Assembly: GCA_021731405.1 (NCBI GenBank)
Contig: JAKFXN010000002.1
Coordinates: forward strand, 3,151-67,150
DNA: 64,000 bases
Reading direction: 5' to 3'
From: Candidatus Parcubacteria bacterium
Lineage (GTDB): Bacteria; Patescibacteriota; Minisyncoccia; Phycocordibacterales; UBA918
Numbering within the stretch: position 1 is the first letter of the stretch; each line of letters starts with the position of its first letter. This document shows positions 2,970 to 59,378 of this stretch, piece by piece. The position numbers were made by a program, and so were the translations under genes. The notes under the pieces were generated by a model. The model worked only from the letters and a program-made list of their open reading frames with translations. It made no database searches and had not been told where the DNA came from.

Positions 2970-3006
2970 AAAATGATTGTAGTGTAGCGCCTAGCTTCGT
3001 GCAAGC

Positions 3007-8145: not shown

Positions 8146-8147
8146 GT

Positions 8148-9536: not shown

Positions 9537-9553
9537 TTCATAAGTTCATTTAT

Positions 9554-9916
9554 ATGCAAAAAAAAGTAACAGCAACGCCAAAAAAAGCAGCTGCAAAAAA
9601 GGCAGTCTCTAAAAAAAATCCCACTGAGGCAAAGAAAAAGTCTGGAAAGAAGACTCTGCTTATTGCAAATAATCAGCAATCGTTTTGGGTTAATAACGGT
9701 CAGATTCTAAACAGTTTGTTGGCTCTTGAGACAGCGCTCCAGGTGATGACTAAAGATACTTTTTCATACCATGTCGCCAAAGACAGGAATGACTTTGCTC
9801 AGTGGGTGGAATATGTCCTTGTGGATGCAGCCTGCGCCGCTGATTTGCGTAAGGCTAAGACTCCAAGTGCAGCTAAGACGGTAGTTGTAAAGCACCTAAA
9901 GACCTACCAGCTCTAA
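9554..9916 (+). CDS. hypothetical protein, Lys/Ala-rich N-terminus plus conserved C-terminal domain
   Basis: Histone-H1-like KKAAAKKAVSKK tail followed by a globular region FWVNNGQILNSLLALETALQVMTKDTFSYHV. Sits inside the glucan cluster. Confidence 0.45.
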   Translation: MQKKVTATPKKAAAKKAVSKKNPTEAKKKSGKKTLLIANNQQSFWVNNGQILNSLLALETALQVMTKDTFSYHVAKDRNDFAQWVEYVLVDAACAADLRKAKTPSAAKTVVVKHLKTYQL

Positions 9917-9919
9917 TAC

Positions 9920-43868: not shown

Positions 43869-45764
43869 TTACACAATTCGGTTTGGGTCAATTTCAATGC
43901 GTATAAAAGGAGGGAGGTTCTTTAACGTTCGAACAAACTCAACCCTATTTTTAGCTTTACTATCGACCTTAAACAGGGCATGTCGCAGTATCTTAGCATC
44001 AGTTGAGCTGGGGTTGCTGTAATAGCTCCCTACAAATGGCTCAGTCATTTTTTTGATTTGTCCCTCTACTTCAAGGACGGTTGTTTTTTCTCCAACCCAG
44101 CTCAGGAGTACAAAACAGCAGAAAGGCGGATATGAAAGTGTTTCGCGAAGCTCAATTTCTTCGTTATAAAATACTTCCAAACTACCATGGATGGCATTTT
44201 GGAGTACCGAGTCAGGAGTGGTCCTTGTTTGGACTAAGACTTGCTGCGAACTCAGTTCGCGCAGTTGTAAAAGTAACCGAAACACATTTTCGTCAGCTCG
44301 CCAGGTAGGATTTGAGCGAGTAGCATCAAGTGAAATAATGGCACTCAGGTCTACTCCTTGCAGAGTCAGGTATGGAATAGCCATCTGGGTACCTACGAGG
44401 ATAGCTCCACGGGTAGTGTAAAAATCATCAATAATCTTTTTGGCTTTTTTCCGTGTTGACCCAGTGACGTGGTCTAACAGAAAAACGCGATGATCTTTAA
44501 AGTGTAAGACGGCTTCGTCGTAGACCTGTTGTATACCAATACCGCGTGGGCGAAGGCGCCACGAACCGCAGTCGGGACAAGTGTCTGCTGCTCGTATCTT
44601 TTTCCCCGAAGTACTTGAAACAAACCACCGTTCCTCGTTGCCTGTCTTTGAGACTGTTTTAACTAAAGAGTACGGGGTCTCGGAGTCAGGGCAGCGAAAA
44701 ATGTACCCACAATCAATGCACGTAACAACAGGTGCAATACCTCTACGAGCACCATACATATAGACTCTGCCTTTGGCATCAAGTACATTTTGCGCCCGAG
44801 CTTTAAGTTCTTTTGAAAAGAGAGAAAAAGGAGCTTCGGGGGTAGATTTATCATGCTGTTCAATGATGGTGAGTGGGGAAGCAAAAGAGATGCGCTTAGT
44901 TTCTTCGTTGTAGGTGCTAAATTGCTCGGCTCGACGTTTATACTCATCTTCAGTTTTTGGTAAGATGTCACCGAGCAAAATACTCCGCCCTGTTACTTTG
45001 GCGTAGGTTTCAAGTACAACACGGTGGTCGAGATATGGTCTGTTTGGGCTGCGATAAAAATCCGAGGCAGAGTTTTCAATGATTATCGAAAGTAAATCAA
45101 CTCTATCAAGATAGGCGTGTGAGGGGGTGGTGATGATAAGTTTGGCGAGACTGGTGTCTTCATATGAAGCGTACGCTTTTTGTCGCTGTGATTTTACCTG
45201 TGCTGGGGAAAATACCACCACCCTATCTTCAATCCCTTGTGACAGGTGTTTCTGTGCATACTCAACGTCAGCACTTGTGGGTACCACAAATACTACAGAG
45301 CCGCGGCGTGCAAGCACTCCTCGGATATGGCTCCGATAGGCAACGTACCTATCTTTCATCGCTGCAGTCAGTAGTTGTGGAATAGTGTCTTCATTGTGAA
45401 CGAGTGAGGAGACCAGTGGATACAGGTATTGTCCTGTTCGAACATCAGTCGGAAGGAGTTGATACAAAATGGCTCCGATAGACGCTGGATACACTTCTGT
45501 TAATTTTGTGGCCGTGTCGCTGATGTTTTTTGGGACGGCGGTATTTGGTGTTTGCTCTGGTAGTTTACGTAAGGTAAAAGAAGCGTTTTTAAGTGAAGTT
45601 TTGTTGTGGGCAACCGGTGTCACTTCTGTCACCACCGCTTTGTGTTCTTTGCCGCGAATTGGGATTGAAAGGAAGGAGCCGATTCCGTACTCCACACTAC
45701 TAAAGTAAGATAACGTGTCGATTTTAGTGCCACGAATAAGTGGAATAACCTGAATGACAAACAT
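43869..45764 (-). CDS. priA: primosomal protein N' (replication restart helicase)
   Basis: N-terminal 3' DNA-binding domain, a superfamily-2 helicase core, and the PriA Cys-rich zinc region CIDCGYIF...CPDCGS. Confidence 0.85.
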   Translation of the reverse strand: MFVIQVIPLIRGTKIDTLSYFSSVEYGIGSFLSIPIRGKEHKAVVTEVTPVAHNKTSLKNASFTLRKLPEQTPNTAVPKNISDTATKLTEVYPASIGAILYQLLPTDVRTGQYLYPLVSSLVHNEDTIPQLLTAAMKDRYVAYRSHIRGVLARRGSVVFVVPTSADVEYAQKHLSQGIEDRVVVFSPAQVKSQRQKAYASYEDTSLAKLIITTPSHAYLDRVDLLSIIIENSASDFYRSPNRPYLDHRVVLETYAKVTGRSILLGDILPKTEDEYKRRAEQFSTYNEETKRISFASPLTIIEQHDKSTPEAPFSLFSKELKARAQNVLDAKGRVYMYGARRGIAPVVTCIDCGYIFRCPDSETPYSLVKTVSKTGNEERWFVSSTSGKKIRAADTCPDCGSWRLRPRGIGIQQVYDEAVLHFKDHRVFLLDHVTGSTRKKAKKIIDDFYTTRGAILVGTQMAIPYLTLQGVDLSAIISLDATRSNPTWRADENVFRLLLQLRELSSQQVLVQTRTTPDSVLQNAIHGSLEVFYNEEIELRETLSYPPFCCFVLLSWVGEKTTVLEVEGQIKKMTEPFVGSYYSNPSSTDAKILRHALFKVDSKAKNRVEFVRTLKNLPPFIRIEIDPNRIV

Positions 45765-45838: not shown

Positions 45839-47338
45839 CTAGAATTCGTCGAGATAAGACACTTTGGCACCAATAGACGAGAGGCGTTCTATGAGTTTTT
45901 CGTAGCCTCGGTTAATACTGTAGATATTGCGAAGAACGCTCTGTCCAGAAGCCGCTAACATGGCGATGAGAAGGATAGTAGCTGGCCGTAAAGCTGGTGG
46001 GCAGATAAGCTCAGTCGCTTTTAGGGCAGTAGGACCGGTGATGTAGATGCGGTGCGGGTCTGCCAAAACTGTCTCAGCACCAAGCTTGTCTAGTTCAGTA
46101 AAATAAATTGCTCGCTTTTCGTATACCCAGTCGTGGATAAGCGTTTGTCCCTCAGCTTGAGTGGCTATGACCGCAAAGAAAGGGAGGTTGTCGATATTGA
46201 GCCCTGGGTACACTGAAGGATGAATTTTTTCATGGAGGGCCTTAAGTTCAGATGGTTTGGTGGTAATATCGACAAGCTTAGTGACTCCATTGTGACTGAA
46301 ATACGGTTTAGATTTTTTGTATTGGAAACCCATCTTTTCTAACTTCAAAAGCTCAAGCTCCAAAAATTCAATCGGACAACGAGTAATGGTGATAGAAGAT
46401 TTGGTCACAATCGCAGCGGCCAAGAAAAACATACTGTCGGTAGGATCTTCTGACAGAGTGTAGGCAACATCTTGGTTAATTTCTGGGAGACCAGTCACGG
46501 TAAGAGTTGTGGTACCAACTCCTTCTATTTGTACCCCAAGTAGTTGAAGGAAAGTACAAACTTCTTGCACCATGTAGTTGGCGGAGGCGTATTTAATAAC
46601 AGTTGTCTTCGGATTTTTGGCTGCCGCAAAAAGAGTGTTTTCTGTCACCGTGTCACCAGACTCGTAGAGAATAATTTCTTCGGGAGAAGTAAAGGTTGTC
46701 TTTACTTCATACGCTTTGTCGGTCGTTTTAATATCAACACCAAAGTTTTGTAATGCATAGAAGTGTGGCATGACGGTTCGACTACCGAGTTTGCATCCAC
46801 CTGACTGTGGGAGACTAAAAGAATTAATCAGATGTATGAGTGGTCCGATAAACATCACAATACTACGAGTTTTTTTGGCAGCCTCAACATCAATTTTATT
46901 AAGGGTAAACTTTTTTGGCGGGGTGATAACCACGCTGTTTGCTTTCCACTCTACTCGCACGCCGATACTTTCGAGTACTTCAATAATTCGATGCACTTCT
47001 TCAATCCGTGGCATGCGATGGAGTGTTGTAGTGCCACGGTTGAGCAAGCTGGCACAGAGAAGCCCAACTGCACCGTTTTTAGAGGTATTTGTCTCGATAG
47101 TTCCCGATAGTTTTTTGCCTCCCTCTATCTGGATATTTACCGTACCAGGGGAGAGGGTAATGAGGTTTTTACCGAGTGCTTGTCCGATGCGTTTTAGCAT
47201 GTCGGCACTCACGTTTTGTTTACCAGACTCAATCCGGGCAATAGCGCTTTGTGTTGTCTTTAATTTTTTTGCTAGGTCAGCCTGAGTAATCCCTTTGGTC
47301 TCGCGCATGTCTGCGATACGGTGTCCGATATTTTGCAT
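45839..47338 (-). CDS. murA: UDP-N-acetylglucosamine 1-carboxyvinyltransferase with N-terminal XRE-family HTH domain
   Basis: Residues 1-60 are an XRE-type HTH (GITQADLAKKLKTTQSAIARIESGKQNVS). These are followed by MurA (GGKKLSGTIETNTSKNGAVGLLCASLL; catalytic-Cys region GGCKLGSR). 499 aa against about 420 for canonical MurA. Confidence 0.85.
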   Translation of the reverse strand: MQNIGHRIADMRETKGITQADLAKKLKTTQSAIARIESGKQNVSADMLKRIGQALGKNLITLSPGTVNIQIEGGKKLSGTIETNTSKNGAVGLLCASLLNRGTTTLHRMPRIEEVHRIIEVLESIGVRVEWKANSVVITPPKKFTLNKIDVEAAKKTRSIVMFIGPLIHLINSFSLPQSGGCKLGSRTVMPHFYALQNFGVDIKTTDKAYEVKTTFTSPEEIILYESGDTVTENTLFAAAKNPKTTVIKYASANYMVQEVCTFLQLLGVQIEGVGTTTLTVTGLPEINQDVAYTLSEDPTDSMFFLAAAIVTKSSITITRCPIEFLELELLKLEKMGFQYKKSKPYFSHNGVTKLVDITTKPSELKALHEKIHPSVYPGLNIDNLPFFAVIATQAEGQTLIHDWVYEKRAIYFTELDKLGAETVLADPHRIYITGPTALKATELICPPALRPATILLIAMLAASGQSVLRNIYSINRGYEKLIERLSSIGAKVSYLDEF

Positions 47339-47417: not shown

Positions 47418-48434
47418 ATGTTTTGGGATAACCTCACACCAAAGATTGGTATCGACTTAGGTACTACAAGCATCTTGGTGTTTGTGCCAGGGCAAGGCAT
47501 TGTTCTCAATGAGCCTTCCGTTGTTGCAGTATCAGATGACAATCAAGTCTTGGCTGTTGGTGCGGAAGCAAAGCGAATGATTGGACGCACACCAGATAGT
47601 ATTCGCGCTTATCGTCCCATGAAAGACGGAGTTATCGCTGATTACCGCGTGACTGAGGTAATGCTTAGATACTTTTTGCGAAAGGCTCTCAGCCGTTACA
47701 ATATTTTTAAACCAGATGTGATGGTCTCGGTGCCTGCCGGAGTGACATCGACCGAACGACGTGCGGTAGTTGAGGCGACTATTAAAGCGGGCGCGCGAAA
47801 CGCCTATGTGGTGAAAGAACCAATTTTGGCAGCTATTGGCGCCGGGGTACCTATTTATGAACCGCAGGGACACATGATTGTTGATATTGGCGGCGGCACC
47901 ATTGACGTAGCGGTTATTTCTCTTGGCGGTATTGTGGCGGCAAACTCAGTAAAATGTGCAGGTAACCGCATAGACGCGTCGATTATTGATTATGTAAAAA
48001 AGACTCGGAACCTTTCAATTGGCGAGAAGACCGCTGAAGAAATTAAAATAACCGTTGGTTCAGCCTTGCCACTTGAGGAAGAACTTATGATGGAGATTAA
48101 AGGGCGTGATGTGCTTTCTGGATTACCTCGTACTACCGAAATCAGAACCAATGAAGTAGTGCGAGCAATTGGGCGAGAACTCCGAGAAATGGTCAAAGCT
48201 ATTAAAGACGTTTTCCAAGAAACACCACCTGAGCTCGCGGCTGATATTATTGATGGCGGCATTATTATGACAGGCGGAACTTCACAGCTCCGAAATTTTC
48301 CAGAGCTCGTGCGGCGTCGCTCGGGGGTAAAAGCTCATCTGGCAGACCAGGCACTTTTTTGTGTAGCGACCGGTACCGGTATTGCACTTGAGCATCTGGA
48401 TGTCTACAAACGCACTGTTTTGGCCAAGCGCTAA
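47418..48434 (+). CDS. mreB: rod shape-determining protein MreB (paralog 1)
   Basis: Actin-fold phosphate-1 IGIDLGTT, DIGGGTID and adenosine motifs. 338 aa. Confidence 0.9.
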   Translation: MFWDNLTPKIGIDLGTTSILVFVPGQGIVLNEPSVVAVSDDNQVLAVGAEAKRMIGRTPDSIRAYRPMKDGVIADYRVTEVMLRYFLRKALSRYNIFKPDVMVSVPAGVTSTERRAVVEATIKAGARNAYVVKEPILAAIGAGVPIYEPQGHMIVDIGGGTIDVAVISLGGIVAANSVKCAGNRIDASIIDYVKKTRNLSIGEKTAEEIKITVGSALPLEEELMMEIKGRDVLSGLPRTTEIRTNEVVRAIGRELREMVKAIKDVFQETPPELAADIIDGGIIMTGGTSQLRNFPELVRRRSGVKAHLADQALFCVATGTGIALEHLDVYKRTVLAKR

Positions 48435-48522
48435 AAATAAATACCTGGAAGCAAAGCTTTCAGGTATTTTTTAGGGGATTTCAAACCCGTTCTTTCGACA
48501 CGAGTAAGATACAATAAGGGTA

Positions 48523-51285
48523 ATGACAGAAGGTGTACCAAAACAATTCTCTTCCCCCGAGGAAGAGCTTGTGTATTTACGGCAACAAATCGCAGACCGC
48601 GAACGCGAATTATTGATGCGAAATCCTGAGACAGATGGAGCGGACACTGAGACTATCGGTCGCCAAGAAATCAAAGAGTACGCGACTTTTACGCCGCAAG
48701 TCATCTTGGCACGGGAACACGCCCTTGATCCCCATACTCTGGCTGCATCTGTCGAGCAGGTAGCTATTTCGCATGACCCAGTGGCCGATATTATGAAAGT
48801 GGCTACGGAAAAAGGTATTCGTAATGCTCTTTCAGTGCTTGAAAAAGTAAATAACGCTTACGTGATAGATGAGGTGCATCGTCAGCTGGTTGAATACATT
48901 AGTGCAGGAGCATCCTTTCAAGATTTAAAAGAAGGTATGGCTCCGTGGCATGTGCTCCATATGACCTTGTATGAAGTTACTCTGCCGGAAGTCACAGCTG
49001 TAGCTAGTAAAGAATATCAGCTGGCTGAGCTTGTTGGGATGATGGAGCAGTTGTTTGCTGGGTTACGCACTATCGGCTCACAGCAGGCAAATAATCACTT
49101 TGTAATTGAGATTGCTGTGGCAGACAACAGTGATGATATTGTATTTTACGTTGCTGTACCAAATCAGTTTGTGACGCTGTTTGAGAAGCAGACACTTTCC
49201 CTGTTCCCATTTGCTGAACTGACCGTAAAGTCACATGACTACAATATCTTTGTGGATGGGGGCACCACCCTTGTTTCTGAAGTCGCTCTAACCAAGCATC
49301 CTATTTATCCGCTGCGTACACATGAAGCGTTTACCTCAGATCCGCTTGCTGTCTTACTAAACGCTTTTTCTAAAATTGAACGTGAGGGTGGGGGAGCAGC
49401 AATACAGTTTGTGATGCGTCACCCTGTTCGCCAGTACCGTAAAGACTACGAGGGTATTATCAAAAATATCCAAAAAGGGATGAAGGCTTCGGAGGCTATC
49501 TCTCGTAGTACAGTAAGCGGCAGCCTCATTGCCGGTGTGAGTGATCTGTTTTCATCAAAAAAGAAAGACGCTATGGAGGAGCCAAAAACAATTGATTCAG
49601 AGAAAATTGAAATCTTTTCACGCAAAATTAAGACAGACATTATTGAGACCAATATTAGGATTGCTGTTTCAGCTAAAGAGCCACGCCGAGCGGAGCAAAT
49701 CCTGACCGAAATTGAATCCACCCTCAATCAATTTGGTGCCGTTGATGGAAATGCTTTTACTTTCAAACACAGTAAAGGAAGCGGCCTTCCAGCGATGCAA
49801 AAATCTTTTGCGTTTCGGGACTTTTCTGCAAAGGCAGCTCTTCCGCTTTCTCTCTCAGAACTCTCAGTCCTCATTCATTTCCCAAGTAACGGTATCTTAA
49901 GCTCACCACAGTTTAAACAGTCACAATCTGTAACTGCTCCAGCCCCACTCGATATGCCGACAGCAGGAACAATCTTGGGTGTAAATAAACATCGCAACGT
50001 CGAGACTCCTATCTATATGACAGAACTCGACCGAATGCGGCACCTCTACATCATCGGACAGACCGGTACGGGTAAGTCTAAGTTTATGACTAACACCATC
50101 ATCCAAGACATTCAGCAGGGAAATGGTGTTTGTATGATTGACCCGCACGGAACCGACATAGAAGAGGTGCTGGGTGCAATCCCTCCTGAGCGTGCCAAAG
50201 ATGTTATTTATTTTGACCCTTCACAAATGGATAATGTGGTAGGACTCAATATGCTTGAGTACGACGAAACAAAACCTGAACAAAAGACCTTTGTGGTCAA
50301 TGAGCTTTTTTCTATTTTCCAAAAACTCTATGGTGCCAATCCAGAGAGTATGGGGCCGATGTTTGAGCAATATTTTAGAAATGCCACTATGCTCGTGATG
50401 GAAGATCCAGAGAGTGGCAATACGCTCATGGATATCTCACGTGTGATGGTGGACGCACAATATCGTCGTTATAAACTTTCAAAAGCCAAGAATCCCGTTG
50501 TTGTCCAATTTTGGACAGAGATAGCTACCAAAGCAGGTGGGGAAGCAGCGCTTGAAAATATCGTACCGTATATTGTATCTAAGTTTGATGTTTTTACCGC
50601 CAATGACTACATGCGTCCGATTATCGGGCAGCAAAAATCTGCCTTCAATTTTAGACAAGTGATGGATGAAAGAAAGATTCTGTTGGTGAATCTTTCAAAG
50701 GGGCGGCTAGGTGAAATTAATGCCAACCTCATCGGTATGATTGTAGTTGGAAAGATTTTAATGGCAGCGCTCTCTCGGGTGGATGATCCGACGCGAAGCT
50801 TTCCTCCATTTTATTTACATATAGACGAATTCCAAAACGTTTCAACTCCAGCTATTGCATCAATTCTCTCTGAGGCACGGAAGTACAAACTCAGTCTGAC
50901 TGTCGTACACCAGTTTATTGCGCAGCTGGATCAAAATATAAAAGAGGCGGTATTTGGAAACGTTGGCTCCATAGTGTCGTTCCGAGTTGGTACTGAAGAT
51001 GCACAATTTTTGGAGCAGCAATTTGCCCCAGTCTTTTCAGCTAAAGACATTATGAATGTGCCAAACTATAATGCCTTTTTGCGCATTTTGGTAAATGGTG
51101 TGCCAACTAAGCCGTTTAGTATGGCAACAATGCCGCCTATTGTTTCTGACCCAGCTCGTGTGGCAGCTATTATTCAGGAAAGCGCGCTGCGTCATGGTCG
51201 TCCGCGAGCGGAAGTGGAAGCAGAGATAGCAGCGCGTTATGTTAAGAAGCCAGCGGCTGCTGGAGCAGCAGGCAGTATACTGTAA
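48523..51285 (+). CDS. large P-loop NTPase of the FtsK/HerA/VirB4-VirD4 (AAA_10-like) superfamily, soluble N-terminal 470-aa region
   Basis: Walker A IIGQTGTGKSKF and Walker B FYLHIDEFQNV. The following ARKYKLSLTVVHQFIAQLDQNIKEAVFGNVGSIVSFRVG block resembles the conserved C-terminal core of conjugative coupling/VirB4-type ATPases. No N-terminal TM helices. Confidence 0.6.
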   Translation: MTEGVPKQFSSPEEELVYLRQQIADRERELLMRNPETDGADTETIGRQEIKEYATFTPQVILAREHALDPHTLAASVEQVAISHDPVADIMKVATEKGIRNALSVLEKVNNAYVIDEVHRQLVEYISAGASFQDLKEGMAPWHVLHMTLYEVTLPEVTAVASKEYQLAELVGMMEQLFAGLRTIGSQQANNHFVIEIAVADNSDDIVFYVAVPNQFVTLFEKQTLSLFPFAELTVKSHDYNIFVDGGTTLVSEVALTKHPIYPLRTHEAFTSDPLAVLLNAFSKIEREGGGAAIQFVMRHPVRQYRKDYEGIIKNIQKGMKASEAISRSTVSGSLIAGVSDLFSSKKKDAMEEPKTIDSEKIEIFSRKIKTDIIETNIRIAVSAKEPRRAEQILTEIESTLNQFGAVDGNAFTFKHSKGSGLPAMQKSFAFRDFSAKAALPLSLSELSVLIHFPSNGILSSPQFKQSQSVTAPAPLDMPTAGTILGVNKHRNVETPIYMTELDRMRHLYIIGQTGTGKSKFMTNTIIQDIQQGNGVCMIDPHGTDIEEVLGAIPPERAKDVIYFDPSQMDNVVGLNMLEYDETKPEQKTFVVNELFSIFQKLYGANPESMGPMFEQYFRNATMLVMEDPESGNTLMDISRVMVDAQYRRYKLSKAKNPVVVQFWTEIATKAGGEAALENIVPYIVSKFDVFTANDYMRPIIGQQKSAFNFRQVMDERKILLVNLSKGRLGEINANLIGMIVVGKILMAALSRVDDPTRSFPPFYLHIDEFQNVSTPAIASILSEARKYKLSLTVVHQFIAQLDQNIKEAVFGNVGSIVSFRVGTEDAQFLEQQFAPVFSAKDIMNVPNYNAFLRILVNGVPTKPFSMATMPPIVSDPARVAAIIQESALRHGRPRAEVEAEIAARYVKKPAAAGAAGSIL

Positions 51286-51293
51286 TTACTACT

Positions 51294-54200
51294 ATGAGTT
51301 CTGAACGACCTACTACAACTAATACCCTTGAGACTGGTCAAATAATCAGGATATTCGAACAGACACAAAGTCTAAAGCTTACTCATGAGGCGGAGCACTC
51401 AGTCATGCAGAGTGCAGCCGACAAACTCAAAGAGGAGGGAGTGTTTAACACACACAAAGAGCTTTTTGTTGCGGCTTGGGGCTTACATGAACAGATTACT
51501 AGAGGTCTGAATGAGCTCATCGTCGCTGAAAAAAATAAAACACTGAGCCCCTATCACGTCAGACTTCTTCGTGATGTCGAAAATACAGATATAGAATTTG
51601 CTGCCATAAAAAACGAGGTTATAAAAATATTGACTACTCTGGGGTATGAAGAACAAGAGGTTCCTGAAAACCAAACAGCTCTAGAATCCGAGGCTCCTGC
51701 CGCGACTAATGAGGTGGCAATTGAAGTGGGTGCTAGTTCAGAACCAGAAATGTCCGAGGTAGCACTTGCTACGGAGGTGCAAGAAAATAATCCGTCGGAA
51801 ATAGCCAAACTAACAGAACTATATCGACTTGCCGATATTAGTGCGTTTAGAATAAATCCGAGCGAAAATAGAATTCAATATAAAACGTTTGATGTTATTG
51901 AAAGTGATATACAGGGCGTGCTTACTAATGCTGGTTTCAATAGTGGAATGGTCTTAGTCTTTATGAATGAGGCGGTGAATCGCCTTAAACATGAAATCAA
52001 TGAATTGCTACAGCGGCAAGCAGCAGAAAGTAACTCAGACGAGAAACAAAGATTGCGAGCAATAGTCACAGAGAAGTACCAGGAGATATTAACAGCTGTC
52101 GCTGGCTTCATGTTAACGGAAAAGGTAGACGAGGCAGAAGGGTTGGTTGATAGCGAGCTTCCAACCGAAGGTCTCGATAATCTTGATGACGCAATAGAGT
52201 CCACGCTTCAAGAGTTCGCTACTTTGGAACAAAGTGGTCTTTACACTGATAACGATACTGCTTTTAAGAAAGCGGCTGTTGCTGCTGGGAGACTGCAATC
52301 ATATACAGAAACGGATGAGGTCAGGGCGTCACACGACAAAGAGCGTTACTTACGCAAACTACAGGCTGCCTTGGCAGAAATCAAAGGTCAGACAGAAGAC
52401 AATGTCCCTGAAGTAATCCTTACCGACACGACAGCCCCTGAAATTGCAATGGAAGTAGCAGAGCGAGCCATTCTTGATGAAGCTGTTGCTGAGCCGGTCG
52501 TCGTGACTCCTGAATTCGCTAATCTTGAACCAGTAGAAGAAGTTTCACTCAAAAATCCAGGAGTGCTCTCTGTTGAGGAAGTGGCAGGAAAAAAGAAACA
52601 CGAAGCGCTGTTTGAAGTAAAGAGTGAATATAAAGAAAAACAGCAAGCCTACAAAGAGGCCTTAGCTGATTTTTACGAAGAGCAAAAAAGTAACGCCACA
52701 ATACAGTCACAAATCGGAGCGGGATTTAGAAAAATAACTGGCCTGGGCCTGAGTCCAGAACTCCCTCCAGCGATTTTAGCGTTGCAAAATGAATACAAGC
52801 AGTTACGGGCCGTCTACGCTGAGTCATTAAACCAAGCTCTTATCGAGCGTTCACAAAGAGAGGGAAACAGAGAACATAGTCTTGCTTCTGATGGAGCTAA
52901 GATTGCTTTTGGTAAGAAGTTTATTTTAAAACCAAATCAAGAGATAGTGGCGCTGCAAGAAACCGCCATACTGTCACCAGAAGTGAAAGAAAGGCTTGGT
53001 CGAGTGATGGAGTTGATGGCTAAACATAAGTGGGCCGCGAGAATTGGTATTGTGGCCGCAGCCGGTATTGTTGGTGGGCTAAGTGGTGGAGCAGGATTCG
53101 TGTTGGCTGGTGCTGGGGCCGCTAGTTTCCAGGCCTCTAAGATGGCTCTTTCTGCTGTCGCTGGTGCGGGTGCTGGGTACGGAGCAAATAGGCTGACCCA
53201 AGGTGGGGTAGATAAAGCCTCAGCTAATTTTGATACTACAAGCAAGGGGTTCACACTAGCTGATCTAGATGCGTTTGAGACAGAGCTCATTAGTGCCGAG
53301 TCGAACCTTCGGTCAGCCAAAACGAGACAAAAAGTCGCTACGATTGGCGCAGCTGTGTTGGCGGGAGGCACAACTGGGTACAGTCTCGCATCTGTTGATG
53401 TAGATAGTTTTTTGCCGGGGAATAGGGAAGGGTTAAGCAAGGAAGCGGTCGACAGAATAGTGGCTGATGAAATCGCTGCTTCTGGAGTCGTGGATTCAAA
53501 TAATCCTACAGCTGATTCTTCTCCCGTATCAACTGAACAGAAAGTCGAAGCAATACCAGAAATACCTGGTTTTAAGATTGAGACATTTACTATTCCGTAC
53601 TACGGATTTTCTAGTGGTGGAGAAACTTTTGAGACAGTAATAGCTAACACAAAAATTGAGGGAGCGTTTAGTACTGGTCCATTACCTGAAGCGAACAGGC
53701 TTGAACTCATAAAAGAAATAAAACTCAGTATGGATGGTTCGCTCTATGCTCATCCAAGCATACCAGAAGGTAAACTTGAAGCGGAGGTATTAAGCAAGGT
53801 GCAGGCGAAGTTCGCGGATGCTCCTTGGTACAGAGAAGCTGGAATAACCAAAATCAATATCGGGCATATGTACAACCAGGAATATACAATGCCTGGGTTA
53901 GAGCCTGTGGAGGTGTCTGAAAAAATAATAACCGGCGCGTCTCAAGAAAAAATTGGTTCAACCTATGTTGTACAAAAGGGAGACACTCTTTCTGAAATAA
54001 CTGAAAAAAGATTCGCAGAGCAATTGAAAGACATTCCAGCCAATAAGCGGGGAGTTCTTTTGGACGAATTATTTAGAAACATTCAAGCAGATGCTGACTT
54101 GCGTGGTTCTCTCGGTATTCGAAGTGGGGATGTCGATTTAATTTACCCAAATGAAAAACTAAATCTCGACGGTGTTGAAGCTGAACTAACGAGGCTCGTA

Positions 54201-54815
54201 GAGCGAGAACAGATACTGGAAAATTTCCGTACCTCCGGTCCGCTTTCAGTGGAGGCTGATGCTGACGTAAAAAATGTTCCTATTACAGTGGTTGAAAAAC
54301 CAGTACCAGCGACAGTAGATGTAACTGCTGATAGCGGAAGGGTGTACAAAGAAGCGGTACCAACACCTGTTCCAAAACCGGTTGAGCTAGTGGCTCCACG
54401 ACCGTACTCTCTAAATGGACAGTTCGCTGATACGCCTGCTTACAAAGAGTACCTGCAAAAAGTTTTTGGTACAGCGAAACTTATGGAGCGCGCTGTTGAA
54501 ACCGCAGCTACCAACTTTGATAAGACTACCTACGACATTTTTGAAAGCTTTGGTACTTACTACGAAAGCCCGTATCGTTTTCTTGGGGACATGACACTCC
54601 AGCAGGTAACGGAGTTTGAGACTCAGCCAAATGATCAAATCAGAGCTTTTTTGAATGATAATAAAATCAAGTACGAAACGTATTTGGCTTGGTTAGATAA
54701 AATAGATGAGATGGCTAAGGCTTTACCAAATCAAAGTGAGACCAGAGTGTCAGATCTCTTTACTCGGTATGTTGCGGAAACACAGTCATTGCGTCCTAAT
54801 TCATTGTTAAAATAA
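51294..54815 (+). CDS. large (1173 aa) envelope protein: acidic coiled-coil N-terminus, Gly/Ala-zipper membrane segment, LysM-like domain
   Basis: Starts 9 nt after the ATPase gene. The hydrophobic stretch IGIVAAAGIVGGLSGGAGFVLAGAGAAS is present. The LysM-like stretch is YVVQKGDTLSEITEKRF...IYPNEKLNL. Confidence 0.55.
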   Translation: MSSERPTTTNTLETGQIIRIFEQTQSLKLTHEAEHSVMQSAADKLKEEGVFNTHKELFVAAWGLHEQITRGLNELIVAEKNKTLSPYHVRLLRDVENTDIEFAAIKNEVIKILTTLGYEEQEVPENQTALESEAPAATNEVAIEVGASSEPEMSEVALATEVQENNPSEIAKLTELYRLADISAFRINPSENRIQYKTFDVIESDIQGVLTNAGFNSGMVLVFMNEAVNRLKHEINELLQRQAAESNSDEKQRLRAIVTEKYQEILTAVAGFMLTEKVDEAEGLVDSELPTEGLDNLDDAIESTLQEFATLEQSGLYTDNDTAFKKAAVAAGRLQSYTETDEVRASHDKERYLRKLQAALAEIKGQTEDNVPEVILTDTTAPEIAMEVAERAILDEAVAEPVVVTPEFANLEPVEEVSLKNPGVLSVEEVAGKKKHEALFEVKSEYKEKQQAYKEALADFYEEQKSNATIQSQIGAGFRKITGLGLSPELPPAILALQNEYKQLRAVYAESLNQALIERSQREGNREHSLASDGAKIAFGKKFILKPNQEIVALQETAILSPEVKERLGRVMELMAKHKWAARIGIVAAAGIVGGLSGGAGFVLAGAGAASFQASKMALSAVAGAGAGYGANRLTQGGVDKASANFDTTSKGFTLADLDAFETELISAESNLRSAKTRQKVATIGAAVLAGGTTGYSLASVDVDSFLPGNREGLSKEAVDRIVADEIAASGVVDSNNPTADSSPVSTEQKVEAIPEIPGFKIETFTIPYYGFSSGGETFETVIANTKIEGAFSTGPLPEANRLELIKEIKLSMDGSLYAHPSIPEGKLEAEVLSKVQAKFADAPWYREAGITKINIGHMYNQEYTMPGLEPVEVSEKIITGASQEKIGSTYVVQKGDTLSEITEKRFAEQLKDIPANKRGVLLDELFRNIQADADLRGSLGIRSGDVDLIYPNEKLNLDGVEAELTRLVEREQILENFRTSGPLSVEADADVKNVPITVVEKPVPATVDVTADSGRVYKEAVPTPVPKPVELVAPRPYSLNGQFADTPAYKEYLQKVFGTAKLMERAVETAATNFDKTTYDIFESFGTYYESPYRFLGDMTLQQVTEFETQPNDQIRAFLNDNKIKYETYLAWLDKIDEMAKALPNQSETRVSDLFTRYVAETQSLRPNSLLK

Positions 54816-54816
54816 T

Positions 54817-55116
54817 ATGACAAACTTAACAGCTACAAAAAATACTTCTGATCTATCTTCTCTTTTTATCTTCGATAATTTTGAAGGAGAGGAGCAGCAG
54901 GCATTTCTAGAAGAAGTAGGTACTTTGATTTTCCAGAGCGCTTTAATGCAGCATTTGTCTGTAGTTTCTGATATCGAAGCTGAACGATTTGAAAGATTTG
55001 TCGAAAGCCACATCGACACGGAAACATTTGTTGATGTGTTATGTTTGGAATTTCCGCAGTTTGAAAAAGTCTTGACCTCCGAGATGCGTGCGTTCAATTC
55101 AGAAATGAAATTATAA
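54817..55116 (+). CDS. small acidic hypothetical protein
   Basis: 99 aa. Starts 2 nt after the preceding gene. Confidence 0.4.
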   Translation: MTNLTATKNTSDLSSLFIFDNFEGEEQQAFLEEVGTLIFQSALMQHLSVVSDIEAERFERFVESHIDTETFVDVLCLEFPQFEKVLTSEMRAFNSEMKL

Positions 55117-55183
55117 ATTAATACACAGCTGTTCTTGCAATCATGCTGTGTTCAAATGGAGAGAGTGGTATGATAAATGAGTT

Positions 55184-56566
55184 ATGGACCAAGGAAGTTC
55201 TTTAAATAATTCTTTTGATTTTAATTCGCAAGCCGGAGTCATGTCGCTCTTGGCTTCTATTCGTGCAAGCACGCTTTCTCCAGCCGAAAAAAACGAGCTG
55301 CGAGATTTAGTATTTTTATATACCAATGGTGGGGGAGATGTATCGGTGCGTATTGCACTTGAACAAAAACTTGTTGCTCACAAAATAACTCAAGGGCCAG
55401 CGAAGCAAGCTTCAGCCCCTGCTCCAGTTTTGCCTTTTGGTAGTTCTCGTCCTGCACCAGTGTTTAAGATGCCAGTAGCTAGTTCAACACCCGCTCCAGC
55501 AGCTGCACCTGTTGCTCCAGCACCGGTGGTGGCGCCAGCCCCAGCGCCTGTTGTAGAAGCTGCACCTGTAGTTGCTGTACCAACTCCAACTCCTGCACCT
55601 GAGCCAGTAGCAGTTGTTCCTGCACCCGTCGCACCAGCTCCCGTTGCAGCCCCAGCCCCAGTTGCTATGCAGGTGCCAGTAACCAGTGGCGCAAATACCA
55701 ATTATCTAGACAGAATCCGAGAAATTAAAACCGCTGTAAACAGTAAGGTTGGGAATCCCGTTAATTTGGTTGATATCAACAATGAAGTTGGTCGCGAGTA
55801 CATGAACGCGCTGCTTGAAGCGATGAAGAGACTGAGTGGTGGAGCAGGTGGACAGATAGAGCTGGCGATGCAAAGACTCGAAACAGCGTATCAAGCAGTT
55901 GAAGTGGCTGTAGCAGCACATACACAAGCAGCTCCCGTGGCAGCGCCAGAACCAACCCCTGTAGCACCAGCTCCTGCACCTGAGCCGGTAGCGATACCAA
56001 CGCCAATAGTACATACACCTGCTCCAGAAGTGGTAATAGCCACACCTGACATGCCAGTAGATTTGGTTGCTATTGCACAAGGTCCTAGTGGATTTGATGT
56101 GGCAAGTGTTCCTCCTGAAGCACCTATTGTAGTACCAGTTGCAGCGCCTTCATTTGCTTCAATTGCCACTGAGAAAAAAATACTCACTCCACAAGACTTA
56201 CCAGCAGCTGCTTCTATTTCAACCAGTGCGTCTGGTGACCCATATCGAACAAAAGAAATAGATGACGGTCTAGAACAACTGCTTTCAGACTGGGTACTCT
56301 TCAAGAAAAGTGGTCTTTTTGGTACTGGTCCAAAGGGTCGTGAGCACCCACTCTTCAAGAAGATTGCCGACTTACAGATACCACTTCTTCTAGCTGGTCG
56401 TTTTGAAGGCTCGACACAAGAAATCAAACAAAGTATTACTGATTACATGAATGGTTGGCGCTACGAGCAGGGTATTATCTACGAGCAAGGTGAGACTTTC
56501 GAGCATTATCTAAGACGTGTTATTAAGCAAATTCTCGATTTGCAAAAAAAACGCAGACCAGCATAA
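55184..56566 (+). CDS. Pro/Ala-rich low-complexity protein with globular N- and C-terminal domains
   Basis: About 250 aa of PAPVAAPAP-type repeats between an N-terminal 70-aa domain and a C-terminal domain of about 130 aa. Confidence 0.5.
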   Translation: MDQGSSLNNSFDFNSQAGVMSLLASIRASTLSPAEKNELRDLVFLYTNGGGDVSVRIALEQKLVAHKITQGPAKQASAPAPVLPFGSSRPAPVFKMPVASSTPAPAAAPVAPAPVVAPAPAPVVEAAPVVAVPTPTPAPEPVAVVPAPVAPAPVAAPAPVAMQVPVTSGANTNYLDRIREIKTAVNSKVGNPVNLVDINNEVGREYMNALLEAMKRLSGGAGGQIELAMQRLETAYQAVEVAVAAHTQAAPVAAPEPTPVAPAPAPEPVAIPTPIVHTPAPEVVIATPDMPVDLVAIAQGPSGFDVASVPPEAPIVVPVAAPSFASIATEKKILTPQDLPAAASISTSASGDPYRTKEIDDGLEQLLSDWVLFKKSGLFGTGPKGREHPLFKKIADLQIPLLLAGRFEGSTQEIKQSITDYMNGWRYEQGIIYEQGETFEHYLRRVIKQILDLQKKRRPA

Positions 56567-56573
56567 TGGAGTA

Positions 56574-57194
56574 ATGCTTACGCACCACGCGTTTATCTGT
56601 CGCACTCCTGTATTTACAGATACTCATATAAGAGACATACGCGCCTCTTTTCCCTTAAGTGCTGAGACCGAGTACGTCACCCTTGAAGCTTTCGGTATCG
56701 ATGATGTTCGTACCTTAACCGAAAAAGCTTTTGTGCGACCAAAGGAAGGGAAGCAATTGCTTTTGGTTGTAGGATTAAAGACGATTACGGTTGAGTCGCA
56801 ACAAGCTCTCTTAAAAATTCTAGAAGAACCGCCTTCTTCCACCACTTTTTTATTTATTGTTCCAAAAACACTCTTTCTGCTTCCGACGCTCCTCTCTCGC
56901 TTTCATGAGTATGAGTACCCAACAGAAGTGGTAGAGAAACCAAATCAAAGTTTTCTAAACTTCAAAAGCCTTTCGCCCGCTGATAGAATTGTGCTCATTA
57001 CCGAAAAAATGGCTGCTAAGGATACGAATTGGGTTGAGGAGATTAAAATTGGTCTACAGAGCCTGCTTCAAGAACCAAAAAGTGGAGCGAAGCTACAGAA
57101 TGTTGCCACTCTCTACTTTGTAGCAGAGCATTTACAAACCCGTGGTGCTGCCAATAAGATGCTCCTTGAAGAACTAGCTTTATCGCTCACCTAG
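56574..57194 (+). CDS. holB: DNA polymerase III delta' subunit-like (clamp-loader, degenerate P-loop)
   Basis: QQALLKILEEPP (the xNALLKTLEEPP box) and upstream HHAFIC. No GxxGxGK P-loop. The ORF-track start at 56517 overlaps the upstream gene, so the internal ATG at 56574 is preferred. Confidence 0.65.
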   Translation: MLTHHAFICRTPVFTDTHIRDIRASFPLSAETEYVTLEAFGIDDVRTLTEKAFVRPKEGKQLLLVVGLKTITVESQQALLKILEEPPSSTTFLFIVPKTLFLLPTLLSRFHEYEYPTEVVEKPNQSFLNFKSLSPADRIVLITEKMAAKDTNWVEEIKIGLQSLLQEPKSGAKLQNVATLYFVAEHLQTRGAANKMLLEELALSLT

Positions 57195-57244
57195 CTAGCC
57201 TCAAAGCCATAAAGTGGTACACTATAGAAAATTGTAAAGTTTTA

Positions 57245-57796
57245 ATGATTTGTATGAGTATTGAAATAAATAAACGTTTGGACGAAGTAATTGAGTGGTT
57301 ACAAAAAGAATATGCCGGTATCCGGACAGGGCAAGCAAACCCAAGTTTGCTTGATTCAGTAAAAGTTGAGACATATGGAACTTACTTACCAATTCAGCAA
57401 ATTGGTTCTGTGAGCGGGGAAGACGCGCGAACACTTAGAGTTTCTTTGTGGGATAGTAGTCAGGTACCAGCGCTTGAGCGGGCTATTCGTGAAGCTGATC
57501 TCGGTGTATCGGTCGTGTCTGATTCTTCTGGTCTTCGGGTTATCTTTCCAGAGCTCACCAGTGAGCGTCGCGCGCAGCTCATGAAGCTGGCCAAGAGCAA
57601 ACTTGAAGACGCTCGCATATCAGTGCGTGGCGTGCGTGACGACGAAATGAAAGAACTCGATCGAAGTTTTAAAGCCAAAGAAATGGGCGAAGATGATATG
57701 TTCGCCAAAAAAGAAAAAATTCAGAAGAGTGTAGAGGAAACAAATAACAAACTCGAATCAATGTTTATACATAAAGAACGCGAGCTTCAAAAATAA
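57245..57796 (+). CDS. frr: ribosome recycling factor
   Basis: Typical RRF length and the LPIQQIGSVSGEDARTLRVSLWD ... RISVRGVRDD regions. Confidence 0.9.
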   Translation: MICMSIEINKRLDEVIEWLQKEYAGIRTGQANPSLLDSVKVETYGTYLPIQQIGSVSGEDARTLRVSLWDSSQVPALERAIREADLGVSVVSDSSGLRVIFPELTSERRAQLMKLAKSKLEDARISVRGVRDDEMKELDRSFKAKEMGEDDMFAKKEKIQKSVEETNNKLESMFIHKERELQK

Positions 57797-57799
57797 TTC

Positions 57800-58891
57800 A
57801 TGTCAGTCATTATCTTTTTTCTTGTCCTATTTGTTCTCATATTAGTCCATGAGTGGGGGCATTTCATTGCTGCTAAGAAAACGGGAATGCGCGTTGATGA
57901 ATTTGGTATTGGATTTCCACCAAAACTCTTTGGTGTAAAAAAGGGAGAGACAGAATACACACTGAACAGCTTGCCGATTGGTGGTTTTGTGAGAATTTAT
58001 GGTGAAAATCCAGAGTCTGTTGATGGACATGATTCAGATATTGCGCGAGCATTTGGTTCTCGTCCGAAGTGGGCGCAGGCAGTTGTGCTCGTGGCTGGTG
58101 TCACTATGAACGTCATTTTTGCGTGGCTGCTTTTCTTCGGAACAGCAATACTTGGTATTCCAACAGCGGTAGAGGAATCAGGAGCTTCTTCTGAAGCAGT
58201 CTTGTATATCTCGGGAGTACTTCCAAATGGTCCATTGCAAAATCTGATTAAACCTGGTTCACAGATACTGAGTCTAGAGAGTAATGGTCAAGAATTGGTA
58301 AATCCAAAACCGACGACCTTTAGTCAGTTTATACAAAATAACGCAGATAACGACGTAGTCATTACCTATCGGTATGGATCAGAAGAGGCTTCACTTACTG
58401 TGCGCCCAGCAGTTGGTCTTATTCCAGACGATGCAAACAAAGCAGCGGTTGGCGTTTCCCTGGCTATGGTAGAGACGCAGTCAGCGGGTTTTCTTGAAGC
58501 CATCATGTCTGCTTCAAGTCAGACATACAACGGTCTTGTAGCTATCACTACTGGTCTCTTTACACTGCTTGGTCAGTCACTGACAGGCACCGCTGATTTT
58601 TCACAAGTGGCAGGACCTGTCGGTATTGTAGGGATGGTAGGTGATGCGGCTGATTTTGGTATCACCGCACTCCTTACATTTACTGCGATGATATCTCTTA
58701 ACTTAGCTGTCATAAACATGCTCCCTGTACCAGCGCTTGATGGTGGACGATTGGTGTTTGTGGCTATTGAAGCAGTCACTCGTCGCCCGATCAATCCTGT
58801 TTGGACCGGCAGGGTAAACCTCATAGGCTTTGCCCTTCTTATGCTTCTCATGGTGGTAGTTACTTGGAACGACATAGCTCGTCTTCTCTAA
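57800..58891 (+). CDS. rseP: RIP site-2 zinc metalloprotease
   Basis: HEWGH (HExxH) in the first TM helix. Downstream PDZ-like region and LDGG motif. Confidence 0.85.
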   Translation: MSVIIFFLVLFVLILVHEWGHFIAAKKTGMRVDEFGIGFPPKLFGVKKGETEYTLNSLPIGGFVRIYGENPESVDGHDSDIARAFGSRPKWAQAVVLVAGVTMNVIFAWLLFFGTAILGIPTAVEESGASSEAVLYISGVLPNGPLQNLIKPGSQILSLESNGQELVNPKPTTFSQFIQNNADNDVVITYRYGSEEASLTVRPAVGLIPDDANKAAVGVSLAMVETQSAGFLEAIMSASSQTYNGLVAITTGLFTLLGQSLTGTADFSQVAGPVGIVGMVGDAADFGITALLTFTAMISLNLAVINMLPVPALDGGRLVFVAIEAVTRRPINPVWTGRVNLIGFALLMLLMVVVTWNDIARLL

Positions 58892-58908: not shown

Positions 58909-58939
58909 AAAAATCCTACTTAGCAGTAGGATTTTTTTG
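58909..58939 (+). terminator. rho-independent terminator after rseP
   Basis: ATCCTACT-tagc-AGTAGGAT hairpin followed by TTTTTTT. Confidence 0.7.
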
Positions 58940-58972
58940 TACCGCAGTGCGGGTGTTCTTTGGGAGAAAATC

Positions 58973-59296
58973 ATGAAAGTGCATAACCTGCGAAAAGCAG
59001 CGGTTTTGGTTGTGATTTATGGCAACGGACGGGCTGGTATCGTTAAGATGGTGATGAGAGATACCCCCGAAGAATTGTTTGGTCCAGCTTTCATGAAAGG
59101 TCCAGACGGCAAGGATATTTATATGACCGTGCTGGGGGAAATTTTTGTGGCAGATCTGGGTGCTTCAAATGCAGAAAACCTCATCTGTGTAGACCATGCG
59201 CCAGTTTCCAAGAATTGGATTGGAGCAGATGGAGTGAGCTATCGATTGGTGGCGTGTGACTATCGGTACCGACCACCCGAGCGCCAGTCGCGTTAA
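58973..59296 (+). CDS. hypothetical protein (108 aa)
   Basis: The ORF-track start at 58937 lies inside the rseP terminator hairpin, so the ATG at 58973 (MKVHNLRK...) is preferred. No family recognised. Confidence 0.35.
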   Translation: MKVHNLRKAAVLVVIYGNGRAGIVKMVMRDTPEELFGPAFMKGPDGKDIYMTVLGEIFVADLGASNAENLICVDHAPVSKNWIGADGVSYRLVACDYRYRPPERQSR

Positions 59297-59324
59297 ATTT
59301 GACCAATGTTACAAGAACCTCATA

Positions 59325-59352
59325 AACAGGCCTGCGGGCCTGTTTTCTTTTG
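59325..59352 (+). terminator. rho-independent terminator
   Basis: CAGGCCTGC-ggg-... GCCTGTTTTCTTTT hairpin followed by a T-run. Confidence 0.55.
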
Positions 59353-59378
59353 ACCCTTACAACTTTTGACGCTACAAT
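59350..59378 (+). promoter_or_regulatory. sigma70-like promoter for proS
   Basis: TTGACC (59350-59355), 17-nt spacer, TACAAT (59373-59378), 65 nt upstream of the proS ATG. Confidence 0.5.

Follow-up and report, generated by a model that had tools for sequence, protein, structure and literature searches.

A soluble coupling-protein-type ATPase family with a DUF8128 N-domain and its variable neighbours on Paceibacteria chromosomes

The locus and its predicted transcription unit

We analyzed a 64-kb stretch of a Paceibacteria (candidate phyla radiation, CPR) chromosome – in what follows, the window – and focused on four co-directional genes within it. The first encodes a P-loop ATPase and the others encode three proteins that we call Big, S99 and PA460 (Table 1). 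An earlier note on this DNA had read the four genes as an operon and as a candidate self-contained secretion or envelope apparatus. On re-checking coordinates, + strand and sequence, we recovered the four open reading frames (ORFs) and the ATPase motifs as the note gave them. The packing is as tight as it said, though its gap sizes of 9, 2 and 68 nt were off by one: the true gaps are 8 nt (ATPase/Big), 1 nt (Big/S99) and 67 nt (S99/PA460).

Table 1. Features of the ATPase locus, in window positions (T4CP, type IV coupling protein; pLDDT, predicted local distance difference test)
Feature	Position	Strand	Description
ATPase gene	48523-51285	+	920 aa; ORF call
ATPase residues 1-144	48523-48954	+	Soluble helical N-terminal extension (type A architecture); helices at 12-127 in the model
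ATPase residues 145-470	48955-49932	+	DUF8128 core, alpha/beta N-domain; pLDDT mostly 85-95
ATPase residues ~480-905	49960-51237	+	T4CP-type P-loop domain with all-helical insertion at ~586-692
Big gene	51294-54815	+	1173 aa, acidic protein; ORF call
S99 gene	54817-55116	+	99 aa, acidic protein; ORF call
PA460 gene	55184-56566	+	460 aa; ORF call
mreB paralogue 1 (mreB1)	47418-48434	+	338 aa; directly 5' of the ATPase gene, outside the unit; MreB_Mbl Pfam matches on orthologues
Intrinsic-terminator-like hairpin between mreB1 and the ATPase gene	48439-48475	+	14-bp stem, 3-nt loop, U run
holB (DNA polymerase III delta'), frr, rseP	56574-58891	+	Pfam DNA_pol3_delta2; RRF and Peptidase_M50 on orthologues
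First strong terminator-like hairpin 3' of the cluster	59324-59345	+	9-bp stem, 5 GC pairs, T run; consensus scan

The four genes likely belong to a longer transcription unit, which we predict to comprise ATPase-Big-S99-PA460-holB-frr-rseP. That the unit reaches rseP is suggested by the terminator behind mreB1, from the spacing of PA460 and holB – the holB ATG lies 7 nt past the PA460 stop – and from the position of the next strong terminator. RNA folding gave the mreB1 hairpin a dG of -17.7 kcal/mol (z -5.2), which was equalled by none of 200 shuffles, and the downstream terminator is followed by a promoter-like site before proS (59350-59378; 10 of 12 consensus positions). Since PA460 and holB are so close and the unit runs on to rseP, tight spacing does not set the four genes apart. 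The proposed operon shows the tight co-directional packing described and likely includes holB, frr and rseP as well.

Two smaller elements were also identified in this region. The S99/PA460 gap, the only sizeable one in the cluster, contains an inverted repeat (ACACAGC...GCTGTGT, 55128-55156, + strand; 7-bp stem, 15-nt loop, no T run) that could be a processing or attenuation element. Between rseP and the downstream terminator, a 119-aa ORF with a TTG start (58937-59296, + strand) is a candidate gene.

The ATPase and its family

Among the FtsK-HerA ATPases, we place this soluble protein in the T4CP branch (VirD4/TrwB/TraD); its membrane domain is replaced by a DUF8128 N-domain. Its Walker A (GQTGTGKS; residues 512-519, nt 50056-50079) and Walker B (HIDEF; residues 766-770, nt 50818-50832) motifs are invariant in 41 family members. 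On the window protein the Pfam models T4SS-DNA_transf (25.2 bits, gathering cut-off 20.1), TraG-D_C (24.8 bits, cut-off 22) and DUF87 score above their cut-offs, and TrwB_AAD_bind scores under its own (17.2 bits, cut-off 20.5). Across the 41 members, we found matches to TrwB_AAD_bind in 38, DUF87 in 38, TraG-D_C in 37 and T4SS-DNA_transf in 20. TraD and VirD4-like families ranked top in NCBIfam, and the closest PDB relatives by sequence, searched with the family profile, are TrwB and DotL. Pfam, NCBIfam and structural matches therefore agree on the placement in the VirD4/VirB4/HerA superfamily that the earlier note had made. By sequence, the N-domain is not a standard VirB4 N-domain: the VirB4-type models CagE_TrbE_VirB and AAA_10 match none and two of the 41 members, respectively, and NCBIfam VirB4_plasma meets the ATPase at Walker A only (E 0.0027).

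We found no transmembrane helix or hydrophobic segment in residues 1-470, as had been noted earlier, and the N-terminal transmembrane domain typical of a T4CP is thus missing. The sole hydrophobic stretch (732-754) lies within the ATPase fold. DUF8128 (PF26449) is a precomputed annotation on nearly all of the 120 closest listed homologues (69-95% identity) and on distant relatives, and the window ATPase is assigned to it through these homologues. The DUF8128 core has six invariant residues – E196, D239, Q295, K368, R432 and E446. Neither an FtsK gamma domain nor another recognisable DNA-binding module was found in the ATPase.

An AlphaFold (AF2) model of the protein (mean pLDDT 83.9) has four parts: the helical extension (12-127), an alpha/beta N-domain (~145-460), a RecA-like ATPase domain and an insertion. 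The insertion, which comprises six helices and ~110 residues (586-692) between Walker A and Walker B, occupies the position of the T4CP all-alpha domain. The structural matches, with their listed figures, were the VirB4 C-terminal domain (30.2), the DptH C-domain (29.0), TrwB (27.7), HerA (25.4), DotL (24.4), TcpA (18.1), FtsK (17.8) and EccC (17-18), and the TrwB alignment covers 360 of 420 residues. Foldseek placed full-length R388 TrwK/VirB4 chains first (E 2e-14, ~900 aligned columns) and TrwB below them (E 2e-10, ~450 columns), with TM-scores of only ~0.3. VirB4 proteins (R388 TrwK and the T. pseudethanolicus VirB4 C-terminal domain) are thus the top structural matches of an ATPase that VirB4 sequence models do not recognise. 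As the Foldseek alignment spans full-length R388 VirB4, the modelled N-domain may have a VirB4-like fold. The family profile gave no significant alignment to a plasmid VirB4-like protein, a comparison that is uninformative because the P-loop also remained unaligned.

The likeness to T4CPs (VirD4/TrwB/TraD/TraG) comprises the Walker motifs, the helical insertion, a C-terminal RKY...HQ block and the best sequence matches. The differences are the ~140-aa helical extension and ~325-aa DUF8128 in place of an N-terminal transmembrane domain, the lack of an acidic C-terminal tail, and the location – a chromosomal core gene that is not beside a relaxase or a type IV secretion system (T4SS).

As a separate observation, residues 72-189 of the ATPase (48736-49089) weakly match the bacterial proteasome activator Bpa (Pfam E 9e-4; PDB 5iet E 0.026). 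Such matches occur in 3 of the 41 family members, and a helical bundle is modelled at this position. The similarity is probably a chance likeness of helical bundles.

Relatives of the ATPase are found in at least 558 species or places, at 48-95% identity. We scanned one genome per GTDB species with a sequence pattern and took the best 80 relatives for identity figures: these are 48-83% identical to the window protein and all come from Paceibacteria-type metagenome-assembled genomes. A HMMER scan with residues 1-470 identified 794 cluster representatives at E<=1e-3, of 1.84 billion, sharing a core at ~145-468. Conservation of the ATPase is comparable to that of MurA and ProS at the same loci. 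Its neighbourhoods are always housekeeping, often with envelope or division genes (mreB, the dcw cluster, ftsQ) or rmuC. In lineages at ~50% identity the gene lies after secY-adk-map and before ndk, near yqeY and rmuC, or beside the dcw cluster, and the ftsQ context was also seen among related loci. The ATPase is a class-wide core gene of Paceibacteria – vertically inherited, chromosomal and not part of a mobile element.

Full-length family members are of two types. Members of the first, to which the window ATPase belongs, are ~880-1120 aa long and have a soluble N-extension. Members of the second (5 of 24, e.g., P0252/L085) are ~800 aa long and have a single, very hydrophobic N-terminal transmembrane helix; judged by sequence, they look like conventionally anchored coupling proteins. 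Because this helix replaces the soluble extension, the family points to a membrane-proximal location.

Two related loci are unusual in their gene content. In L085 (4604-14582) a transmembrane-anchored 804-aa member lies amid co-directional genes that encode an FtsQ-like POTRA protein, a GT-C-like protein with eight transmembrane helices, an acidic 162-aa protein and four small uncharacterised proteins with multiple transmembrane helices. The metagenomic contig L086 encodes two T4CP-like ATPases (505-3381 and 8001-11363): one of 958 aa without a transmembrane helix or a DUF8128 call, and one of 1120 aa with DUF8128. Each is beside a ~770-aa orphan protein, which suggests paralogous pairs of an ATPase and a large protein.

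Homologues of the ATPase are also encoded by Bacillus phages and plasmids. PHROG 5156, whose function is unannotated, matches residues 190-904 (E 3e-79) and includes Bacillus phage G gp156, 000TH010 gp47, and PBC5-like and SPO1-like phage proteins. These are homologous over the DUF8128 core and the ATPase domain; they differ in their low identity (~20-25%), in belonging to phage early regions, where they lie between lysis and recombination/replication genes, and in lacking Big, S99 or PA460 partners. On Bacillus plasmids (NZ_CP032854.1, NZ_OX419568.1), a DUF87 protein of 886-913 aa likewise combines the N-domain and the ATPase domain with no transmembrane helix. It aligns to family profile positions 186-874 and retains K368, R379, R432 and E446, but differs from the window ATPase in its ~23% identity, in lacking the first ~190 residues and in its long acidic C-terminal tail. 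Its gene is the first of a Tcp-like conjugation module and is followed by genes for a replication-relaxation protein, a TcpC-like protein, TcpE, a VirB4-like ATPase and a VirB6-sized protein; the adjoining replication-relaxation gene and VirB3/4/6-like genes are a further difference from the window locus. Judged by this gene order, family members stand in the place of the coupling protein where a T4SS accompanies them, and a coupling function is predicted for the plasmid proteins.

Our literature searches on DUF8128, on DUF5663 (see below) and on SPO1 with VirD4 found no papers. A recent survey of Patescibacteria nonetheless describes a population that fits the window ATPase (Quinonero-Coronel et al. 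2025; PMC12102498). It reports that a chromosomal T4SS is near-universal in Patescibacteria, with VirB4 in 2,417 of 3,035 genomes and, in Paceibacteria, usually near dnaA/dnaN. VirD4-like T4CP homologues were more numerous – 5,713 in 2,918 of the 3,035 genomes – and only 148 of them lie near virB4. The survey authors consider exaptation of such orphan VirD4-like genes possible (PMC12102498). The window ATPase is consistent with membership in this 'orphan T4CP' population.

Big, S99, PA460 and their genomic surroundings

To compare the genes around the ATPase, ORFs were called in 84 related loci, clustered and searched with iterated hidden Markov models. We defined a close clade by an ATPase at least 57% identical to that of the window, which gave 24 informative unique loci.

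Big is an acidic protein (pI 4.7) with a variable N-terminal region. Its conserved central module (residues ~430-720, nt 52581-53453) comprises a coiled coil and a Gly/Ala-rich hydrophobic part, with hydrophobic segments at ~580-609 and 681-701. A LysM-like segment follows (residues 889-958, nt 53958-54167), and the protein ends in a conserved domain of ~150 aa that we call BigC (residues ~1020-1170, nt 54351-54803). Big has no match in Pfam, PHROG, PADLOC or PDB sequences. The earlier description of an acidic protein with a Gly/Ala membrane segment and a LysM-like region held; a true LysM match did not emerge, as Pfam LysM (PF01476) fails to match the window protein and matches 1 of 27 homologues (E 0.003), and NCBIfam PRK11198 reaches E 0.047 on the window protein. 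A GDTLWxI...IYPGxxIxL signature with a ~35-aa insert is conserved across the long Big homologues and suggests a derived LysM-like unit, with 'LysM' itself unproven.

Local HMM iterations recovered the Big family in 21 loci, with lengths of 268-1847 aa. The protein is highly variable: its overall length range is 213-1847 aa, the gene is sometimes absent, and identity between loci is 23-40% vs 60-83% for the ATPase. Long forms share the central module, the LysM-like region and BigC; the central module was found in 15 loci, including the distant L057 and L067. Short forms (213-776 aa) are soluble, and BigC is detectable in 6 of 8. A search for BigC in a database of 5.8 billion proteins matched one fragment, with a word index too insensitive for so divergent a domain. 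If Big crosses the membrane three times, the LysM-like region and BigC would be outside the cell. That most short forms carry BigC with neither a transmembrane helix nor a signal sequence argues for a cytoplasmic location or non-classical export.

S99 has a pI of 4.2, and its PDB sequence search returned nothing significant. We consider it a divergent member of DUF5663 (PF18908), an assignment based on sequence profiles that holds at the family level and not for the window copy alone: the window copy scores 14.1 bits (E 0.071, cut-off 23.7), 6 of 17 aligned members have E<=0.01, and the member in L084 scores 24.5 bits, above the cut-off. S99 follows all 15 long Big forms (at least 790 aa) whose flank could be read and none of the 8 short forms.

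PA460 is predicted by AF2 to have three small all-alpha domains (residues 16-65, 170-249 and 357-457; pLDDT ~90) joined by two disordered linkers (66-169 and 250-356; pLDDT <60). The linkers are rich in Pro, Ala and Val, which make up 71% and 53% of their residues. A Pro/Ala-rich stretch had been reported before at about 250 residues; it is indeed present, as 211 residues divided between the two linkers. We found no tandem repeats in the PA460 DNA, no transmembrane or signal sequence, nothing significant in a PDB sequence search, and only generic helical bundles among PDB structures (all E>=1). None of its 644 homologues has a Pfam domain, and ~80 residues are invariant. The idea that Big and PA460 have a C-terminal 'signal' domain in common was rejected, since hhalign probabilities were <=1% for all pairs among BigC, S99 and the N-terminal, middle and C-terminal domains of PA460.

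In the close clade, the ATPase lies in a syntenic 20-kb block (fmt-def-U631-murA | mreB1-ATPase-...-holB-frr-rseP-proS-mreB2-mreC), where U631 is a 631-aa protein described below; mreB1 adjoins the ATPase gene in all close-clade loci and in L047. PA460 is present in 23 of the 24 loci (absent from L032), at least one gene intervenes between the ATPase and PA460/holB in 19, S99 is present in 11, and all four genes occur together in 10. The ATPase is directly followed by PA460 in L025, L027, L029, L030 and L033. Because the whole block is syntenic, adjacency within it is not independent evidence of a link.

Outside the close clade, a second context was identified in L067 and L057. There, an ATPase 48-49% identical to that of the window lies in a different neighbourhood, and the next two genes encode, in this order, a ~880-aa protein in which the central module of Big is present (E 6e-13) and a DUF5663 protein. 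The L084 DUF5663 gene lies two genes upstream of the ATPase. The second context independently supports a link between the ATPase, the Big central module and S99. PA460 was never found near the ATPase in distant (~50%-identity) loci; what ties it to the ATPase is synteny within the clade, which may mean no more than its adjacency to holB does. Co-conservation of the four genes is thus partial: the trio recurs in L067 and L057, and PA460 accompanies the ATPase in the close clade. A self-contained four-gene apparatus does not emerge from these data, given that the neighbours of the ATPase vary by lineage, that the four genes co-occur in fewer than half of the close-clade loci and that PA460 is confined to this clade.

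The remaining annotated genes of the window are housekeeping, and their closest proteins come from Paceibacteria/Parcubacteria metagenome-assembled genomes. They include uppP, hisS, a class I aldolase, glycogen-type enzymes, truB, a DEAD-box helicase, an F-type ATP synthase, fpg, fmt, def, murA, proS, mreC and two mreB genes. Rfam identified one tRNA and nothing further in the window, and GC content is uniform along it (42-48%). VirB3, VirB6 and VirB8 neighbours were found neither in the window nor in 80 clustered related loci. Window annotation and partner searches thus agree with the earlier view that the partners are non-canonical and that no T4SS genes lie nearby; the VirB6, VirB8 or pilin genes that would have marked an ordinary T4SS are absent from the window.

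Several other genes in the window drew our attention. The two MreB paralogues (47418-48434 and 60715-61797, both + strand) are 42% identical to each other, and the second is beside mreC. MurA (EPSP_synthase fold; 45839-47338, - strand) has an N-terminal Cro/C1-type HTH_3 domain, an unusual fusion of enzyme and regulator that Pfam also identifies in L001 and L003; most close-clade orthologues are likewise ~500 aa long. U631 (43869-45764, - strand), which is basic (pI 9.1), matches neither Pfam nor PHROG. In 24 syntenic loci its gene separates def from murA (31-72% identity, 626-661 aa), and it is a conserved protein of this clade without an assigned role. Two giant proteins (28891-32661, 1256 aa; 32816-37618, 1600 aa; both + strand) have C-terminal Laminin_G_3 and PG_binding_1 domains, and the second also has a beta-helix region. 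Finally, a 518-aa protein (25303-26859, + strand) joins an RnfD/NQR2-like membrane domain to a NAD_binding_1 oxidoreductase domain at its C-terminus, and its gene adjoins one for an ApbE flavin transferase, which is encoded on the opposite strand.

Possible roles of the ATPase

We tentatively favor a reading, held at somewhat less than even confidence, in which the ATPase is a soluble T4CP-type translocase at the membrane that serves the chromosomal T4SS, with clade-specific proteins as its adaptors, anchors or substrates. Starting from the family membership, architecture, distribution and co-occurrence described above, we infer that the ATPase would assemble into a ring that acts as an NTP-driven translocase on the cytoplasmic side of the membrane, where protein partners, and not transmembrane helices of its own, would tether it. 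It would pass its substrate – DNA or an unfolded protein – to the Patescibacteria T4SS encoded elsewhere on the chromosome. The downstream genes would be clade-specific accessories and not channel components. The best candidates are Big and its obligate DUF5663 companion, which may be a membrane anchor and adaptor or a substrate and its chaperone; PA460 may be an accessory, flexible helical 'beads-on-a-string' protein.

Known systems may offer partial parallels for such an arrangement. The type IV coupling complex of Legionella comprises DotL, DotM/N and the small acidic adaptors IcmS, IcmW and LvgA. DotL is membrane-anchored, and S99, PA460 and Big are not known to be related to these adaptors in sequence or structure. 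We also considered type VII secretion (EssC/EccC with WXG100 proteins), where an FtsK-like ATPase is likewise found beside a ~100-aa acidic helical protein and large variable proteins. A type VII-like system was rejected. Its hallmarks, a multi-domain FtsK-type ATPase with FHA or transmembrane domains and a WXG100 hairpin partner, are lacking: the window ATPase contains only one P-loop domain, its structural similarity to EccC is far lower than to the leading relatives, and S99 belongs to DUF5663.

Several observations weigh against a T4SS-serving translocase. All TraD and VirD4 models in NCBIfam fall far short of their equivalog cut-offs (e.g., 48.9 vs 366). No VirB-type, relaxase or pilin gene is present in the window, which covers 48 kb upstream and 7 kb downstream of the cluster. 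Identity of 70% across families is above what is usual for substrate receptors. Big is absent or lacks the membrane module in many close relatives and is therefore not an obligatory anchor, and outside the close clade large orphan genes are only marginally enriched next to the ATPase (6/84 vs 24/751, p=0.05). Bacillus phages have no T4SS and encode homologues with the full architecture, so the family can work independently of such a system. In S. epibionticum, the only genetically tested Patescibacterium, the T4SS is essential and the T4CP homologue is reported not to be (PMC12102498).

Some of these points would fit an alternative that we regard as credible but rather unlikely: that the ATPase is an autonomous, T4SS-independent DNA translocase, acting in a core cell-cycle or DNA-handling task such as chromosome segregation or clearance at division, DNA uptake behind ComEC, or recombination or repair, with neighbours that are unrelated or serve as envelope tethers. 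Class-wide conservation on a par with MurA and ProS in at least 558 species is what such a role would predict, as are the envelope, division and rmuC contexts, although CPR genomes are small and dense and housekeeping neighbours are hence little informative. The phage homologues beside recombination and replication genes, the rarity of relaxases in Patescibacteria, and the fact that several of the closest structural relatives (TrwB, HerA, DptH, FtsK) act on DNA also favor it. On the other side, the ATPase has no FtsK gamma or recognisable DNA-binding module, and its plasmid homologues lie within conjugation modules.

It is unlikely, in our estimate, that the four genes are mere neighbours in a long conserved housekeeping operon with no joint function. 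The close-clade block is syntenic as a whole, PA460 is as tightly coupled to holB as the ATPase is to Big, PA460 is missing from distant loci, and the orphan-gene enrichment is marginal – all as chance neighbourhood would have it. This explanation does not account for the recurrence of the trio in L067 and L057, the DUF5663 gene two genes from the ATPase in L084 or the near-perfect pairing of S99 with long Big forms.

More speculatively, a coupling protein without transmembrane helices and of VirB4-like shape might power a lineage-specific envelope system of Paceibacteria independent of the T4SS. In this improbable scheme, the ATPase would recognise fast-evolving proteins without signal sequences by a BigC-type C-terminus and drive their export or insertion, the DUF5663 protein would be a chaperone that shields the Gly/Ala module, the LysM-like part would reach the wall of the cell itself or of its host, and PA460 would be a flexible tether. 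The current evidence requires no new type of machine.

The original proposal of a self-contained secretion or envelope machine – in which the ATPase exports or inserts Big, S99 is a chaperone and PA460 spans or scaffolds the envelope – now appears improbable. It draws on the tight gene spacing, on the absence of a signal peptide from Big, S99 and PA460, and on the trio's retention in a second genomic context. Big evolves fast and places a conserved C-terminal domain on variable bodies, as polymorphic effectors do; S99 accompanies only long forms, mostly with hydrophobic segments, as chaperones of transmembrane effectors do; and the LysM-like motif suggests that Big touches the cell wall. However, a channel-forming component is lacking, PA460 has no transmembrane helix, signal or any match, and in most lineages the ATPase occurs without these partners. 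BigC is also found on the soluble short forms, which makes the topology ambiguous; Big and PA460 end in unrelated domains; and holB, frr and rseP also belong to the predicted unit.

It is highly improbable that the gene is left over from an integrated conjugative element or encodes an anti-phage ATPase of the HerA/DptH/MADS type: PADLOC mad8 matches the ATPase domain (E 2e-15; HerA and DndH weakly) and homologues exist on plasmids and phages, but these PADLOC matches are generic to the ATPase domain, neither an integrase, a relaxase or a nuclease nor Sir2 or another defence partner is present, GC content is uniform, and the gene is vertically inherited at fixed housekeeping positions in hundreds of species.

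Few uncultured bacteria are as abundant as the Paceibacteria. Our analyses define one orphan VirD4-like family – DUF8128 joined to a T4CP nucleotide-binding domain, in variants with and without a transmembrane anchor – and describe its essential-gene-like conservation across the class, its relatives on Bacillus plasmids and phages, and its recurrent pairing with a membrane protein and DUF5663. The role of an orphan T4CP thereby becomes testable, with Bacillus plasmids offering genetics. Confirmation of a VirB4-like N-domain would make the family informative about the divergence of coupling proteins and VirB4 as well.

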